A stretch of 58,662 nt of DNA from assembly GCA_031273295.1 (NCBI GenBank), contig JAISSD010000147.1, positions 1 through 58,662 of the forward strand. Direction: 5' to 3'. Source of the stretch: Prevotella sp. GTDB taxonomy: Bacteria > Bacteroidota > Bacteroidia > Bacteroidales > Dysgonomonadaceae. The notes below the pieces were generated by a model. That model did no database searches and had not been told where the DNA came from. It worked only from the letters and a program-made list of their open reading frames with translations. A program made the position numbers and the translations under genes. Position 1 is the stretch's first letter, and each line of letters begins with the position of its first letter. Below are positions 43,249 through 58,616 of this stretch, piece by piece.

Positions 43249-44356
43249 TTTAAGTTTCCACCCTTTAACCTCCAGTAAATCAAGGAAAAAAGCAGTGATA
43301 ATTCGATATAATTTGCTAATTTTGTGGTAGTTAAATACAAAAATACAAATTTAAAAAACTATCACCGCTTATGCGTGTAAAAATAAGCATTTTAGAGGAA
43401 TTGGCAAGCATTCTGACGAAAAAAGAGAAGAGAGATGGCGGGATTTTCCATTTTTCAAAACAGTTTAAAATCGGGCGTCTTAAAGCTGTTTTGCGATGTA
43501 AAGCAACAGGGATTTACGCTGACGCCGGTACTTGTAGCGCTGATTTTATGCCGTTTGGGAGGCATCAGCGTTTATGCGGCGCAAAAAACAGGCAACCTGC
43601 ACATGGATGATAATACGATATACCGTTTGATGAACAATCCGTTAATAAACCGGAAATCAATAGTTTTATCTTTTGCCGGACAATTTTTGCGTTGCGCGGC
43701 AAAAACGGCGTCCCTGCAAAAGAGGCGGTAAAATGCTTCATAATTGACGACACGGATATCGGAAAAACAGGTAAAACATTTGAGGGTATCAGCAAGATAT
43801 TCAGCCATGTAACACACAGCTACAAGTTTGGATTCAGGAAACTCGTCCTCTGCTTTTGGGACGGAAAGAGCCTGATTCCCTGCGGGTTTTCCCTGCACCG
43901 TGAAAATAAAAAAACGAATACGGGCTAAACAAATGGGCAAGGCGCAAAACACCGATTTTTGCGGACAGATTGCCGATATTTCGCTAACGCTGATAACATA
44001 CACGATACTTGAACTTTACAAGCGTTTTGAAGATTACGAAACACCGGGGCAACTTTTCCGGACAACGCAGGAAGAATTGCTGGAAAAAACGCTTTGCGGG
44101 CGCATCGCACGGGTATTTTTGAGGATTGTTGCAGATTTGCCGGAAATTTTCAGTATTGATATGGAAGAAAGCATGAGGCGTTTAATCGCAGCTAAAACAT
44201 CGGACAGGAGGTTGCATATTTTATTAAACGCTATAAATCAGCTAGATGAAAACAGTGAAGACTTGTTAAACGTCTCATGATTTTCTGTTGGCAATCAATT
44301 GATTACAACAAGCATCTCCATTATTGACGATGATGATTAAGGGTGGGAAACTTGAA
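43249..44356 (+). mobile_element. Degenerate IS (IS4/IS701-like DDE transposase, frameshifted and internally deleted)
   Basis: TIRs TTTAAGTTTCCACCCTTTAA and TTAAGGGTGGGAAACTTGAA; fragments DDNTIYRLMNNP, CFIIDDTDIGKTGKTFEGISKIFSHV, WDGKSLIP across frames 43371-44280. Confidence 0.8.
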
Positions 44357-48490: not shown

Positions 48491-48565
48491 TGACCGAAAA
48501 CTAAAAAACGGGAACGAATGATCACCGTTTCCCTGATTTATTATACTTGTAAATATAGTTGTGGA

Positions 48566-49441
48566 ATGGATCGGCAGATGACATTATTCGATTTTGATGA
48601 GGAAAGTACCGGAAACGGCATTGTCAATGTTGCATCTGTACCTCAGCGCAGTCCATTCCGTTATCCGGGAGGGAAAACATGGATTATTCCCGTTGTCCGT
48701 CAATGGATACGGCAGGAGAATAAACCGGTAGCTGAATTGATCGAACCTTTTGCCGGTGGCGGAATTGTAAGTCTCACCGCTGCATTTGAAGGATTGGCGA
48801 GCCATATTACAATGGTTGAACGGGATGAAGAAATTGCCGCAGTATGGGAGGTAATGCTGAATGGAGAAAATAAATGGCTTGCCGATAAAATCTTTTCTTA
48901 CAACCTGACTGTTGACAACGTAAAATCGGAATTGGATAAACCGGACAAACAGCTGCATGACATAGCATTTTGTACCATTCTCAAAAACCGGATTTTTCAT
49001 GGCGGCATTCTTGCCAAAGGTTCGGGGATGACTAAAAACGGTGAAAACGGGAAAGGCATCGCCTCTCGCCCTAAAACTTTACGGGACAGAATTATCGCGA
49101 TCGGGTATATTAAAGACAAAATCAATTTTATTACAGGGGATGCTTTTGATATATTGGAGCAAAACAAGAACAACGATAAATCTTTTTTCTTTATCGACCC
49201 TCCTTATACTGTTGCAGGTAAAAGGCTTTACACCTATTTCGATATAGACCACGAACGTTTATTTGCTTTAATATCCGTATTAAAAGGTAAATTCATGCTT
49301 ACTTACGATAATACTGATGAAATAAGGCAATTGGCGGACAGGTACAATCTTCAATATAAAACCATCCCCATGAAAACCACTCATCATCTGGAAAAAAAAG
49401 AAATAGTTATCTCGGATAATTTTTCATGGTGGAAAAAATAA
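48566..49441 (+). CDS. Dam/D12-class N6-adenine DNA methyltransferase
   Basis: SPFRYPGGKTW, EPFAGGG, FFIDPPY. Confidence 0.88.
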   Translation: MDRQMTLFDFDEESTGNGIVNVASVPQRSPFRYPGGKTWIIPVVRQWIRQENKPVAELIEPFAGGGIVSLTAAFEGLASHITMVERDEEIAAVWEVMLNGENKWLADKIFSYNLTVDNVKSELDKPDKQLHDIAFCTILKNRIFHGGILAKGSGMTKNGENGKGIASRPKTLRDRIIAIGYIKDKINFITGDAFDILEQNKNNDKSFFFIDPPYTVAGKRLYTYFDIDHERLFALISVLKGKFMLTYDNTDEIRQLADRYNLQYKTIPMKTTHHLEKKEIVISDNFSWWKK

Positions 49442-49790: not shown

Positions 49791-49850
49791 GTCGGGTAAA
49801 ATGAACATGTCTGGCAATTACGTCCTGAAAAGGACAATATAATAAATATC

Positions 49851-50413
49851 AAAAACGGCCTCTTAGTTCTGTTTCCGTATCGAATTCCGATAATTGAATA
49901 TAAAAAGGCGGAAATCTGTAATCGATTATCCGGGCAAACAAAATATCTTTGTTGTATAGAGTGGATTAAAGAATTAACCGTTGTTAACGTTCTAAAATCA
50001 TATTATCTCGCATGCATAAAACAACAGCGACAGCCGGAGCAGTACTTCGAAAAACCTTTACCCGTTTCTTCGGGCAGGGTGTTTCTTCGCTGTTCTTTCG
50101 GACTTGTATTCCGAAAGTCAATATTATCAGGCCTTACGCTTCGTATAGACAGATTGCAGGTGGCGATATGGAAAACAGCCTCTTTGTCCGGTCTTTGTTC
50201 CGAATTCCGATAATTGAATATAGAAAGGCGGAAATCTGTAACCGATTATCCGGGCAAACAAAATACCTTTGCTGCATAGAGTAGATTCAAAATTAACCGT
50301 TGTTAACGTTCTAAAATCATATTATCTCGCATGAATAAGACAATATCGGTAGCCGGATCAGTACATCGAAAAGCGTTTTCCCGTTTCTTCGGGCAGGGTG
50401 TTTCTTCGCTGTT
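49851..50413 (+). repeat. ~240 bp tandem duplication (49851-50094 / 50171-50413) of a promoter plus gene start
   Basis: Both copies carry CGAATTCCGATAATTGAATATA.AAAGGCGGAAATCTGTAA, TA(T/C)CTTTG and ATG...FFGQGVSSL. Confidence 0.9.
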
Positions 50414-50769
50414 ACGGAGCTGTAATGCCGGTGGTACAGGACAATCGATGGCAGACGCCTTTTTTCGTTTTTTTCTGGCAATGCCTGTCATCCTGTTCTC
50501 CCTGTTACCGGTCTTGTCGCCGGCACAGGGTCTTCCGGTCGCCGGAACAAAGGCTACCGGAACCAGTCATATCGATCCTTATGCTCCCAAGGTATTTTAC
50601 TTTCCTTTCGGCAGTTCGGCTTTGCTGCGGGATTACGCCGATAACCGCAGGATGTTTGAGGCTTTGGACTCTCTATTGCGTACAGAAGAGATTGTTTCAG
50701 CTATCGACACTGTCCAGATACTCGCCGGCTGTTCGCCTGTCGGGTAGCGAGGGATACATTAGGAATTAA
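50331..50769 (+). pseudogene. Truncated OmpA-like (DUF3575/DUF3868-type) fimbrial-operon protein
   Basis: Signal-like segment, then FYFPFGSSALLRDYADNRRMFEALDSLL...IDTVQILAGCSPVG; continues as SEGY in another frame and then stops. Confidence 0.6.
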
Positions 50770-50866
50770 GAATCAAGAAAAAAATTAAAAATTAAAAATT
50801 AAGAATGCAGAATGTCGAAATTAATTAAGAATTAGGAAATTAATGAAGAATTGGGAATTACGGAAT
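50761..50866 (+). repeat. Degenerate heptamer array (AATTAAG / AATTAGG / AATTAAA)
   Basis: GAATTAAGAATCAAG...AATTAAAAATTAAAAATTAAGAATG...AATTAAGAATTAGG. Confidence 0.6.
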
Positions 50867-50905
50867 CAATGAGAAATAAAGATATAAAATCAAAAATACG
50901 GATAT

Positions 50906-51077: not shown

Positions 51078-53267
51078 ATGATTACAAAAAGACGAAATTT
51101 CGTTTTCCGGTATTTGCCGGGTTTGTTCTTGTCCGGGCTGTTGCTTTTGTCAGGTTGTTCGCAGGATGATGTTTCTGACGTTCCTGCAGGTTCTAGTGCT
51201 ATTAGCTTCAGGGCTCAGGGCGGTATGTCTTCCTTGAAGGCTACAACTACTGGCGCTGATTACATCAGGAGTTTTGCGGTCAATGCACATTACGGCCAAT
51301 ATGATGCTACCGGTAAATTCCTGATCGAGGGCGCTACTGTTTATCGCGGCGAGGGCGGCGGTAATAGCTGGACTTATTCTCCTCAGGCTTACTTCCCGAC
51401 AGAAGACAAGGGCGCCGTTGAGTTCTTCGCTTATTCACCTTCGGGCAGTGAAAACGTGAAGGCCGGTCTAAAGGCTGCAACCGATGCCACCCAGACCATC
51501 ACTTATGAAGTTTCCGTCCCGAACGGTTCTGCCACATCCCAGGAGGACTTGCTCGTCGCTCGCCAGACAGTGGAGTACAGCAGCGTGAATAGCGCTTACC
51601 CAAGCGCTGCAGTTGGCTTGCAGTTCCATCATGCCCTGTCGCGTATTCTGGTTGCAGCCTCTTCCAGTCTCGGTCAGGAAGTGCCAGTCGTGATTACAGG
51701 CCTGGCGTTGAAGAACCTGTATTCCAAAGGCGACTTGTCGTTGTCCTCAAGTAATATTCCTGTTACGGGAGGTTGGGGTTATGCCGACAATACTCCCGGC
51801 GCCAAAGTTTTGTGGACGAATGATACAGAGGCATCTACCATTAAAGATTACGCATACAGTCTGCCAGCTTCCGGGGTTCATGTCGGTGAAACACCCGCAA
51901 CAGTCACCGGTGACGACCAGGGGATTTTCATCTTGCCTCAGGCAACCATAGGTGCGGATGTTACAAATGCCGACCGCGATGGCGAGTTCGGTTTGGAGAT
52001 ATCTTATACGATCAATGGCAACGAGGCTTCGTCTCAAGCTTTCGTTCAGTTCTCCGACCTGGTCAGCAGCTCTTCCACAGCAAGCGTCACCTTCGAGATA
52101 GGCCGTCAGTACGTATTGAATTTGACATTCGGCGCTGGTTCGGGTACCGGTGGTGGCGGCGATACTCCCGGAGGTACCGATCCTGACATTAACATCGGGG
52201 CCAAAATCAGCTTCAGCGATCTTGAGGTTGATCCTTATCCCGATAACATACAGGCTCCGCCACCGCCTCCTGTACCTTATCCTCATGAACCTGTGATCTG
52301 GTCCCAGTCTAACATCTATTATGACGAGACTGCGGATGCAGCTACAAACGTGGGTGCATTGACTTTCTCGGAGACTGCCGACCATAATCTTTACCAGGGA
52401 ATTTACTTCAGGTGGGGTAGTTTGGTCGGCGTTTCCGCAAGTGCAAACATGAGTAGTTTCAGCAATGTCGACTACTTGTTTATCCCGGATGTAGATGGTG
52501 ACGGGTTGTATCACAAGGTACAGATTTCGGCTCTTGCGACTCACTCTGATTTGACCGATGTCATCGGTCTCTTTAAAGCCTCTCTTGCTCTTGCGCCAGC
52601 AGTCTGGACTAATGTCGCAAGCGGTGATACCGATGCGTTGACTGCCTTGTGGACTGCTCTTCCTTACGCCACTAGCACCGACGTTATTCCCGTCTCTCCC
52701 GTTTCTGCCACCGGAAGGACAGAACGGGACGACAATGCCTTGACAACAGAATCTGCTTCCCTGTACAGTTCTTACAAGGGCGACGTATGTAAATACCTGG
52801 TCGACAAGAGTTCTACTAACGGTAACAGTTTCTCGAATACAACCTGGCGTTTGCCTACTTCCAGCGAGTTCGGTCTCAAACCCGCTGGCAATCACACCAA
52901 TAGTGATGCCGTTAACGGTATTACCATCGGCGATTACTTCACTAAATGGGTTTACGATGATTACAGTAGCGTTTCTTTCACTGGCGGCATTCTTGAAGAC
53001 GGTACAGACTCCATGATAGGGAATCATTATTGTACTTTGAACTGGGTATATGAGAACACCGACAAGCCGGACTTTCCCGCTTCAGGGAACCGCGGCAGCG
53101 ACAATGGCGGCCTGAGCTACGGCAACAACGGCAACTTCTGGTCGTCGTCAGCCTACGGTACGTCGTTCGCGTACAACCTGTTCTTCAGCAGTAGCAGCGT
53201 GAACCCGGACGGCAACGGCAACCGGTCGAACGGTCGTAGCGTTAGGTGTGTCAGGCCCGGAGAATAA
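51078..53267 (+). CDS. Fimbrillin (Mfa1-like/type V pilin) lipoprotein with C-terminal CLec-type variable domain; DGR target
   Basis: Lipobox LSGC; WTYSPQAYFP, VEFFAYSP, QEDLLVA, LQFHHALSRI; Gly/Pro linker; C-domain YFRWGS, WRLPT..EF, FPASGNR, NFWSSS, GRSVRCV. Confidence 0.88.
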   Translation: MITKRRNFVFRYLPGLFLSGLLLLSGCSQDDVSDVPAGSSAISFRAQGGMSSLKATTTGADYIRSFAVNAHYGQYDATGKFLIEGATVYRGEGGGNSWTYSPQAYFPTEDKGAVEFFAYSPSGSENVKAGLKAATDATQTITYEVSVPNGSATSQEDLLVARQTVEYSSVNSAYPSAAVGLQFHHALSRILVAASSSLGQEVPVVITGLALKNLYSKGDLSLSSSNIPVTGGWGYADNTPGAKVLWTNDTEASTIKDYAYSLPASGVHVGETPATVTGDDQGIFILPQATIGADVTNADRDGEFGLEISYTINGNEASSQAFVQFSDLVSSSSTASVTFEIGRQYVLNLTFGAGSGTGGGGDTPGGTDPDINIGAKISFSDLEVDPYPDNIQAPPPPPVPYPHEPVIWSQSNIYYDETADAATNVGALTFSETADHNLYQGIYFRWGSLVGVSASANMSSFSNVDYLFIPDVDGDGLYHKVQISALATHSDLTDVIGLFKASLALAPAVWTNVASGDTDALTALWTALPYATSTDVIPVSPVSATGRTERDDNALTTESASLYSSYKGDVCKYLVDKSSTNGNSFSNTTWRLPTSSEFGLKPAGNHTNSDAVNGITIGDYFTKWVYDDYSSVSFTGGILEDGTDSMIGNHYCTLNWVYENTDKPDFPASGNRGSDNGGLSYGNNGNFWSSSAYGTSFAYNLFFSSSSVNPDGNGNRSNGRSVRCVRPGE
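53085..53255 (+). repeat. DGR variable region (VR)
   Basis: 57 codons aligning with 53827-54003; TR AAC codons appear as GGC, AGC, TAC, TTC or GAC. Confidence 0.88.
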
Positions 53268-53354
53268 GCGCCCTTAAGGCGCGCATCCGATTCATTTGAT
53301 TTATTACCTTCCCGCATTTAAGAGCGGGAAGGTTTGAATACCGCCTTTAAGGCG
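53268..53354 (+). other. Three hairpins directly after the VR stop (candidate DGR target-recognition cruciform / terminator)
   Basis: GCGCC-CTTAA-GGCGC; ACCTTCCCGC-ATTTAAGA-GCGGGAAGGT; CGCC-TTTAA-GGCG. Confidence 0.7.
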
Positions 53355-53527
53355 TTCGAAATTTTTTTCGCTCCGGTTATGTCAAAGGAAGTTAACCATT
53401 TAACAATGTTTAACAGAATGAATTAATATTGAATAGCAAGTGCATGGGTGAAGAGTGTAATATGGAGGAGAAATTGCGCCGGGAGTTCTGCCGGGCCGCA
53501 AGCTCCGGCAGAAGAGTGGTTAATACT

Positions 53528-53812
53528 GTCTGAACACGATTTAAAGGATTAAAGGATTACAGGATTTTCATATGATAATAATTTTGTTTTCAATTGACAT
53601 ATGGAACTTGCATGATTTTTATTATCACGGACTTTGGTGATTTGACAAAAATCATGCTTCGTTTCCTGATTGTGTCCGTAAAGAATTGTTACTGAATAAT
53701 ATGACTGTTATTGCATTACAAACGCATGTTTTACAATGTATTAAAAATTATTGCAGTCAATTTGATCCGCAGCAATTCCTGAATCCTTGAATCATATAAA
53801 TCGTGTTCTGAC
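53528..53812. mobile_element. ~285 bp element bounded by ~39 bp imperfect inverted repeats, abutting the TR 5' end
   Basis: GTCTGAACACGATTTAAAGGATTAAAGGATTACAGGATT versus reverse complement GTCAGAACACGATTTATATGATTCAAGGATTCAGGAATT. Confidence 0.65.
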
Positions 53813-53826
53813 TTTTCCCTGTTTTC

Positions 53827-54003
53827 GGGAACCGCAACAACGACAATGGCGAGCTGAACAACGTTGGCAACAACGGCAACTACCGGTCGTCGTCAGCCAA
53901 CGGTGATGCGAACGCGTACAACCTGAACTTCAACAGCGGCAACGTGAACCCGAACAACAACAACAACAACCGGACGAACGGCTTCAGTGTCAGGTGTGTC
54001 AGA
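53827..54003 (+). other. DGR template repeat (TR)
   Basis: Intergenic AAC-rich copy of the VR ending AGGTGTGTCAG; about 22 of ~35 mismatches fall at TR adenines (manual count). Confidence 0.88.
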
Positions 54004-54273
54004 GCATTTGTTTCAATTTCAGAGCCTGTTCAAGTTTTGCCTGCCAGATGGATTGTCTCCGTTCTTTCGGGATTTCCTTTTCCATTCATCAATAAAAATA
54101 CAACGCATGAAATTCATCTGTTCATGCGTTTTTTACATATACCTTCCATGCGCAAAACCATGCCGTACACGGTATAACAATAAAAAAACAAATAACCTGT
54201 AACAGCAAGGAGGCATCCCTGCAGGATAGCCGAGCGATGATGAACGTTGCGTTCTACCGAACGGCGCTTTAAT

Positions 54274-58371: not shown

Positions 58372-58410
58372 GTTTGCGGTTGCCTGTGATTGCGTCCGTC
58401 AAAATGTTCG

Positions 58411-58493
58411 GTTTCCGTTCCGAATTCCGATAATTGAATATAAAAAGGCGGAAATCTGTAACAGGCCAGTCAGCAGTATTAAATATCTTTGTT
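58411..58493 (+). promoter_or_regulatory. Third copy of the conserved fimbrial-gene upstream motif with -7 promoter element
   Basis: CGAATTCCGATAATTGAATATAAAAAGGCGGAAATCTGTAA identical to 49881-49921, followed by TATCTTTG. Confidence 0.8.
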
Positions 58494-58616
58494 CGGATTA
58501 GGTAAACATAATGGACATATTCGGTTCCCTTCATTCATTCGGAAACTTTTCCGGCCTGTCGTATTGCCGTTCAATTAACCGTTAATTATTTGATTGCCAA
58601 TTATAAAGAGAGAGTT

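Follow-up and report, generated by a model that had tools for sequence, protein, structure and literature searches.

We examined a stretch of 58,662 nucleotides from Prevotella sp. (the window), which is the whole of contig C49 (JAISSD010000147.1) in a 4.17 Mb genome assembled as 312 contigs (G000, GCA_031273295.1; contamination estimate 2.5%). A preliminary description of its sequence had pointed to a diversity-generating retroelement (DGR), i.e., a variable repeat (VR) at the end of a pilin-like gene and, downstream, a template repeat (TR) from which the VR had been rewritten with changes at adenines. Our analysis indicates that the locus is probably the relic of a DGR cassette. Its gene, which encodes a predicted pilus-tip adhesin, is intact and bears the adenine-mutagenesis pattern in its last 57 codons; its template stands without a reverse transcriptase (RT), without avd and with half of its RNA leader, and is likely no longer copied. 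The locus is thus a former DGR target with a stranded template, as it lacks the features by which a complete DGR is recognised, namely a cognate TR, an RT, an avd gene and an RNA structured on both sides of the TR.

The VR carries a clear adenine scar. In a global alignment, 21 of the 55 TR adenines differed from the VR, compared with 13 of the 115 other positions (Fisher p=8.1e-5), so the adenine bias reported in the preliminary description holds in a formal alignment, as do its counts of about 13 non-adenine mismatches and two whole-codon gaps. Its figure of about 22 adenine mismatches is likewise right, the 22nd being the last base of the coordinates it used (54003 against 53255). The substitutions at TR adenines were 12 to G, 8 to T and 1 to C, and of the 22 aligned AAC/AAT codons, 8 were changed at position 1, 9 at position 2 and none at position 3, in agreement with the earlier remark that mostly the first two positions of AAC codons were affected. 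Codons ending in C make up a share of 0.60 in the VR vs 0.32 elsewhere in the gene. The last 11 bases of the two repeats are identical, and the TR starts 570 nt 3' of the segment that ends the VR-bearing gene. Clear homology reaches only ~13 nt farther 5' (to 53072 and 53814) and ends a few bases past the common end; it does not run far upstream of the VR, so the TR is not a decayed gene duplicate, an outcome the earlier text had considered.

The VR-bearing protein has the lipobox LSGC, its Cys27 is invariant among 15 aligned homologues, and Pfam Mfa_like_1 (PF13149) matches residues 81-357 above cut-off (E=2.5e-15). With a full-length structure model (predicted local distance difference test, pLDDT, 78.7), the best Foldseek match was the type V pilin 4QB7 (E=6e-14), and there were 43 PDB matches at E<=0.001; among the matches listed, all are type V pilins or putative adhesins of that kind. 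The head (residues 400-729) was modelled with a pLDDT of 91.8. Foldseek returned nothing for it at E<=0.001, the top rows being 4EPS and Lcl, and VIA-align gave 4EPS (Z 5.4, root-mean-square deviation 4.4, 148 residues aligned), PorK (5.2), Mtd (4.7; 4.0, 147), Lcl (4.7; 3.4, 99), TaqVP (4.1) and TvpA (4.0). These rows are almost all C-type-lectin or FGE folds, each with a modest Z (<8), and their agreement, together with weak Lcl_C and FISUMP matches, places the VR at the C-terminus of a predicted C-type-lectin head. A PDB sequence search with the VR profile gave 0 matches. The earlier assignment of a DGR-written VR to the C-terminus of a fimbrillin (type V pilin-like) protein is therefore supported, with a lipoprotein signal in addition.

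These models point to a pilus-tip adhesin. Its nearest named homologues are from Dysgonomonas termitidis and uncultured Bacteroidia, which makes a host of the Dysgonomonas type likely. In the homologue alignment, a nearly invariant Lys54 follows the lipobox within an LKATT motif, whereas Bacteroides pilin-tip proteins have Arg at the basic position cleaved by the protease (10.1101/2024.11.15.621889; this and the other published accounts cited here are drawn on in part). No gene for an anchor or stalk subunit adjoins the target, a statement that covers the adjoining genes only, as such genes were not sought genome-wide. Of the proposed hypervariable surface adhesin, then, one part stands, namely a DGR-written VR on a pilin-like lipoprotein; the other part, a working element that diversifies it now, is not supported, given the lack of an RT on the contig, the avd stub, the half-replaced leader, the 13 non-adenine differences and a better-fitting TR elsewhere.

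A search of the window with the RVT_1 profile found no RT, DGR-type RTs being located on other contigs only, and the TR is followed by DUF1015 (on the opposite strand), serC and serA. The avd gene is reduced to a stub of its last codons; the sole intact avd of the genome lies on C68, and a split copy on C121. What is left of the leader is its first 60 nt, a sequence kept in common with nine other places. No match to the Rfam motif RT-7 was found between 53300 and 53900, and 33 other places in the genome do match it, at 32-104 bits. In place of the leader's second half stands a 285-nt repeat, and folds and the table of duplexes show that two hairpins and one duplex strand are missing. Ten cassettes have the window's type of leader: four contain the repeat insertion, six have an intact leader but a partial TR, and none has both parts whole. 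In six cassettes (C57, C160, C182, C192, C204 and C289), low-complexity runs of a 7-nt unit split or replace half of the TR; such runs are also present in the window, at 50755-50890.

The intact arrangement can be seen in the relative G006, where the order is target, accessory open reading frame (ORF), avd, RT-7, TR and RT, with the same avd end and post-TR motif as in the window. The G006 RT is 70-73% identical to the RTs of C152, C154 and C41 and 48% identical to that of C68, the latter being only 47-48% identical to the C41/C152/C154 clade. All told, G000 holds four full-length DGR-type RTs with YVDD, three halves at contig ends and six short 3' remnants. An additional 601-aa RT, which by sequence appears to be of the group II intron type, was observed on a short contig with conjugation-like genes (G000:C76:372-2177). 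The accessory ORF may be Msl (MutS-like), judging from its position and the Bacteroides account (10.1101/2024.11.15.621889); it had no match in a Pfam search, and a metagenome scan with the C121 accessory protein gave 141 pattern matches, 0 of them confirmed.

The missing leader parts matter for the structure of the RNA. Of 38 cassettes examined, 32 have a 9-nt segment in the leader that can pair, at 7-9 of its 9 positions, with bases just 3' of the TR; the search pattern itself fixed five of the nine upstream positions, and the four unfixed ones covary (AATA/TATT, GTTA/TAAC, TGTC/GACA, GTTT/AAAC), compensating between lineages. The six cassettes without the upstream strand comprise five repeat-disrupted TRs, the window's included, and one at a contig end. 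A second pairing, read by eye, joins the 5' and 3' ends of the RNA; its sequences are unrelated among four families, and the window retains this pairing. Both duplexes between leader and post-TR spacer are predicted for RT-7 leaders of G000, L056, L028, L113 and L115, with compensatory changes between lineages. RT-7 is predicted, from sequence, to be the 5' half of a DGR RNA that is closed by two covarying long-range duplexes. The sister leaders match the whole of the Rfam model (RF03028) at up to 103.6 bits, yet all stay below its gathering score of 116.8, and the truncated window copy does not match. Here RT-7 sits between avd and TR with a predicted pairing to the post-TR spacer, whereas the main text of PMC5737381 treats further RT motifs acting in DGRs as speculation only (its supplement may say more). 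Energy alone does not tell intact from broken cassettes, since both kinds fell between -7 and -13 kcal/mol (the window at -8.2) when RNAduplex was run on 20-nt tails against the 330 nt upstream. The Bordetella DGR needs an upstream-downstream duplex for any cDNA synthesis, and deletion of the upstream strand abolishes reverse transcription (10.1101/2023.10.23.563531); by analogy, the window RNA is likely inactive.

We also compared the window VR with all 15 AAC-rich TRs of the genome. A current cognate template would be expected to differ almost only by A-to-N changes, and the adjacent TR does not, with its 13 non-adenine differences and two indels. The best fit was the TR on C95 (10/108 non-adenine mismatches), with the adjacent TR second (13/114); over the first 35 codons, C95 had a single such mismatch and the adjacent TR five. 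Over the last 33 nt, none of the 15 TRs had fewer than six, and C95 had seven. Several of the VR's non-adenine differences are exact alleles of other TR copies, which would not be expected of random error. As for the window TR, none of 174 VRs fits it better than at ~11% non-adenine mismatch. By way of comparison, the intact DGR on C68 shows 0/129 non-adenine mismatches to its own target and 1-2/129 to four remote targets (C225, C115, C224 and C137), and a half-length TR on C289 shows 1/81 to the VR of C256.

The target belongs to a very large family. A VR-end profile searched over all contigs of the genome gave 197 matches on 135 contigs, of which 140 were at the ends of long or contig-truncated ORFs, 15 were AAC-rich TRs, 22 were leader units and 20 were others. 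Contig ends cut off 87 of these 140 lectin-tipped ORFs, the other 53 being complete; together the 140 span 208 kb, ~5% of the genome, and only six have a VR that matches some TR at <=2% non-adenine mismatch. Between genomes we used an 18-row profile built from G000 and hence biased toward it, which found at least 150 matches in G000, 44 in G043, 0-10 in the other 33 of 34 genomes of the genus and 8-46 in five other Bacteroidales genomes picked for holding homologues. Smaller expansions of VR-like ends were thus observed in G043 (44 matches) and G051 (46), and a search of G051 with one query found no DGR-type RT. RT-7 matched once or twice in each of three of the 34 relatives. A mixture of strains was considered as the source of the expansion and rejected, since matches between contigs that reached 1 kb at >=90% numbered only 17 (26 kb in total), with contamination as given above.

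Traces of template copying are spread across the family. C-ending codons are commoner in the VR than upstream in 109 of 130 testable ORFs, by at least 0.15 in 57. In the 45 VRs closest to the window's TR family, the 987 codons opposite AAC/AAT differ at positions 1-3 in 63%, 53% and 10% of cases, and the 1,547 other codons in 22%, 16% and 24%. The target genes are retained, with open frames and nonsynonymous differences per site (pN) below synonymous ones (pS). When the window target was compared with 14 other complete paralogues of its subfamily, in pairs that share one sequence and are not independent, pS ranged from 0.33 to 0.67 in the pilin domain and from 0.13 to 0.57 in the VR; the VR value was the lower one in 14/14 pairs, in two of them slightly. 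The genes thus seem to have been re-templated from common TRs long after their divergence, and the low VR pS may reflect long-lasting retrohoming in trans. Separately, ~12 short ORFs (140-170 aa) with VR-like ends nearest the C154 TRs were noted on C15, C24 and C300; they are lectin-only, and C15 carries several of them in tandem.

Direct observations are the adenine scar, the absence of genes, the broken leader, a remote TR with a better fit and the expansion, and the history that we infer from them runs as follows. The ancestral cassette was likely arranged as target, MutS-like accessory gene, avd, RT-7 leader, TR and RT, as in G006, and would have been amplified many times in the genome. 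Thereafter the machinery would have decayed and been shuffled, with recombination between copies as the likely cause, and the target genes would have been kept. The window VR was likely last rewritten in trans by a sister template, C95-like over the first 35 codons, with an RT likely from the C41/C152/C154 clade. The target gene, putatively an adhesin, would now be one fixed or rarely rewritten member of the ~140 lectin-tipped surface proteins.

Several points weigh against a relic. The adjacency of VR and TR is known from the assembly alone, and an intact cassette may be absent from it because its 312 contigs break at these very repeats. The window TR is undecayed, with 23 AAC/AAT codons, an open frame in register with the VR, and its post-TR spacer and outer duplex retained. 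TRs with the same disrupting repeat fit remote VRs closely: over 33 nt, the C167 tail has 0 non-adenine differences to C278, the C121 tail has 0 to C256 and C289, and the window TR's own tail has two each to C295 and C36. DGRs that are regarded as functional likewise show codon indels and non-adenine differences, the latter numbering up to 11 per target (PMC5758913). Lastly, the duplex requirement is taken from the distant Bordetella DGR, and five of the nine upstream positions were set by our search pattern.

Alternatively, the window TR could be a live satellite template. It would be transcribed without an RT or avd of its own, and RTs from elsewhere in the genome, with the C68 Avd, would copy it in trans into remote paralogues that match its 3' end, different RT-less TRs addressing different subsets of targets. 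TR tails are indeed 19-42% divergent between copies, against ~10% in heads and flanks, in a codon-conserving manner (pN/pS 0.47 in the VR frame), and several fit particular VR tails at 0-2 non-adenine differences; the C289-C256 match, the four full-length RTs with YVDD and the finding that Bordetella avd, TR and RT function in trans from a plasmid (PMC3240598) all agree with it. However, the window leader is without two hairpins and a duplex strand, no VR fits this TR below the ~11% given above, and the DGR that has the sole intact Avd carries an RT with only 47-48% identity to the matching RT clade, so we regard a live satellite as unlikely. The assembly itself could also mislead, if the contig had been joined through the 285-nt repeat to the wrong TR, its true neighbour being the C95 copy, or if an intact RT-bearing cassette fell in an assembly gap. 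C95 and C167 both start inside this repeat with the same 139 nt, the C95 TR fits the VR better, three RT halves lie at contig ends, and the genes that flank the locus, dprA and DUF1015, are separated by 62-77 kb in three relatives and lie on separate contigs in two. Yet the window copy of the repeat differs by ~10% from those of C95 and C167, enough for an assembler to separate them, and the C95 TR has seven non-adenine mismatches in the 33-nt VR tail. As the C95 leader is broken in the same way and its TR is not followed by an RT, the relic reading would stand even after such a misjoin. We consider an artefact improbable.

Less credible still is that the adjacent TR is the current template and that sloppy retrohoming produced the non-adenine differences and indels. 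The strong adenine bias, the closeness of the two repeats with predicted target hairpins between them and the presence of noncanonical changes in 23% of DGRs (PMC5758913) speak for it, but the exact identity of several VR alleles with other TR copies is unlike random error, the leader is broken and there is no local avd or RT. Finally, in a genome so rich in repeats and paralogues, the second repeat might be just a decayed copy of the 3' end of the gene, unconnected with any retroelement. To this we attach almost no weight: the codon counts, with 0/22 third-position changes at AAC/AAT codons, already refute it, the homology is bounded at both ends, leader and avd remnants of a DGR lie upstream, and relatives contain intact DGRs of the same layout. 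The relic cassette thus remains the reading that we favour.

Beyond this locus, the templates themselves look rewritten. Ten sister TRs are ~90% identical to the window's in flanks and head, where these are homologous, and 58-81% identical in the last 12 codons. The divergence of the tails could be explained by long co-evolution with targets followed by recombination; occasional homing into TRs would also explain it. In addition, 22 non-coding units of ~370 nt consist of a full RT-7-like leader, an adenine-poor TR-like part and a nearly invariant 3' end, the ends being judged by eye only. They lie on C154 (L037), C152 (L038), C264, C125, C232, C250, C2, C50, C37, C122, C312, C162 and C219, and on C154 and C152 several stand in tandem around RT genes. 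In the 19 units measured, mean identity is 89% for leaders and 71% for TR parts, and adenine content 29% and 18%, respectively; the TR parts contain no stop codons, and C occupies 65% of third positions in their variable codons. From their sequence, the 22 units appear to be template genes overwritten by mutagenic homing. As templates of coding genes they were rejected on present data, the best coding VR match having ~24/137 non-adenine sites mismatched, and as small proteins too, the frame from the leader ATG differing among copies. A 258-aa predicted lipoprotein with an ADP-ribosyltransferase exoenzyme domain (PF03496, E=2.7e-17) was noted just 5' of a leader unit on C154 (L037:276-1049).

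A wider scheme can be entertained tentatively, and we rate it as doubtful: a distributed DGR network, running or recent, in which free-standing RT-7 template RNAs, dozens in number, would depend in trans on a few RTs and one Avd, the 3' end of each RNA directing it to some of the ~140 pilus-tip genes, with the templates themselves overwritten by mutagenic homing, evolving and feeding new non-adenine alleles into the adhesin repertoire.

Features of the window locus, and the complete DGR on C68 (positions in the window unless a contig is named)
Feature	Position	Strand	Basis and details
Truncated 5' remnant of OmpA-DUF3575 gene	50331..50747	+	138 codons; blastn matches same position at C4 and C97
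Target gene, 729 aa	51078..53267	+	Lipoprotein signal Cys27; type V pilin N-domain ~residues 40-385; head ~400-729
VR, residues 670-725	53085..53254	+	TR homology from ~53072; share of C-ending codons
Three inverted repeats past stop codon	53268..53356 (53268-53282, 53307-53332, 53340-53356)	.	DNA fold; similar sequence on 25 other contigs
Remnant of final avd codons	53410..53460	+	Aligns with 3' end of intact G006 avd and with C121 avd end; AWVKSV vs AWAKSV
5' part of RT-7-like DGR RNA leader	53468..53527	+	Outer-duplex strand and first hairpin only; 81-89% identity to nine other leaders
Dispersed repeat, 31-nt inverted arms (53528-53558, 53782-53812)	53528..53812	.	Parts match 69 contigs and other genomes of the genus
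TR, non-coding	53827..54002	+	23 AAC/AAT codons in 67-codon profile match; homology from ~53814
Conserved post-TR spacer	54003..54045	+	3' strands of two predicted long-range duplexes (54004-54012, 54014-54020); 32-40/43 identical in 8/9 sister TRs
Sole complete DGR of the genome (L036)	G000:C68:28204-33267		649-aa pilin-like target, accessory ORF, avd, leader, TR, RT

Of the remaining features, the inverted repeats past the stop codon are a candidate target hairpin and terminator. The predicted stems 3' of the VR measure 5 and 10 bp and may be terminators; their loops are off the GRNA consensus, which was drawn from phage DGRs. A conserved target hairpin is not supported genome-wide, because in a generic hairpin count only 19 of 139 VRs were followed within 45 nt by a stem of at least 6 bp. 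The counterparts of the OmpA-DUF3575 remnant at C4 and C97 are ORFs of 415-434 aa with a weak OmpA match, and precede paralogous pilin genes; at C4 the same ORF also carries DUF3575, which at C97 falls in an ORF that overlaps it. A 320-nt tandem repeat was observed 5' of the target (49846-50413) and again at 58386-58510; parts of it match ~105 contigs, and C140 holds at least five tandem copies. It is possibly a shared promoter module. A promoter scan found no signal above chance level. Another paralogue of the target gene starts where the contig ends (58582-58662), which places a family member on either side of DUF1015-serC-serA. The window also contains a fragmented IS4-family transposase (43435-44280) and a gene for a D12-class adenine methyltransferase (48518-49441) that has no evident partner.

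Much of this has precedents, including DGRs that target pilins, up to seven remote targets for one element, 15 targets per genome and TR-VR remnants without an RT (prior work includes PMC4372165 and PMC12875486). The closest are the Bacteroides pilin-tip DGRs (BfrT, BthT and BunT, with Avd and Msl; 10.1101/2024.11.15.621889), which share the lipoprotein pilin, the C-terminal C-type-lectin VR and the similarity to 4QB7 and 4EPS; G006, G055 and C68 likewise hold the accessory ORF, avd and TR, with an RT in G006 and C68. The window differs in its lack of local machinery, its unclean TR match, the absence of adjoining anchor or stalk genes and the ~140 tips in one genome. Cyanobacterial remote and remnant targets, such as the Nostoc all3226 TR-VR pair without an RT (PMC7517822), resemble it in that paralogues are dispersed and the machinery was lost with the target kept, but they amount to 219 paralogues of signalling proteins over 21 genomes, compared with 140 ORFs for surface pilins in one. 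The Treponema denticola DGR has seven remote targets (PMC5758913) and Thiohalocapsa PB-PSB1 has 15 target genes in one genome (10.1101/2023.09.22.558884); both are chromosomal, with several or distant lipoprotein or C-type-lectin genes and intragenomic duplication. Their counts are of matched or active targets, whereas our 140 are paralogues with VR-like ends, six of them at <=2% non-adenine mismatch, and the parts of these two accounts used here do not include free-standing template RNAs. Loosely compared in this way, the adhesin expansion is about ten times the published target counts that we found. Our literature search found no account of an expansion this large, of RT-7 as a DGR leader or of mutagenised template genes, though subscription papers and supplements may hold such.

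Taken together, the locus alone is ordinary, and what is unusual is the genome around it, in the scale of the family and in the observations on template RNAs. Two testable points are offered, that RT-7 is the 5' half of a DGR RNA and that template genes are themselves mutagenised; the latter, if true, would break the usual one-way rule from TR to VR. Surveys anchored on the RT (PMC8144416) would miss nearly all of this expansion, which shows how surface adhesins can persist as a large standing repertoire in the wake of a DGR.

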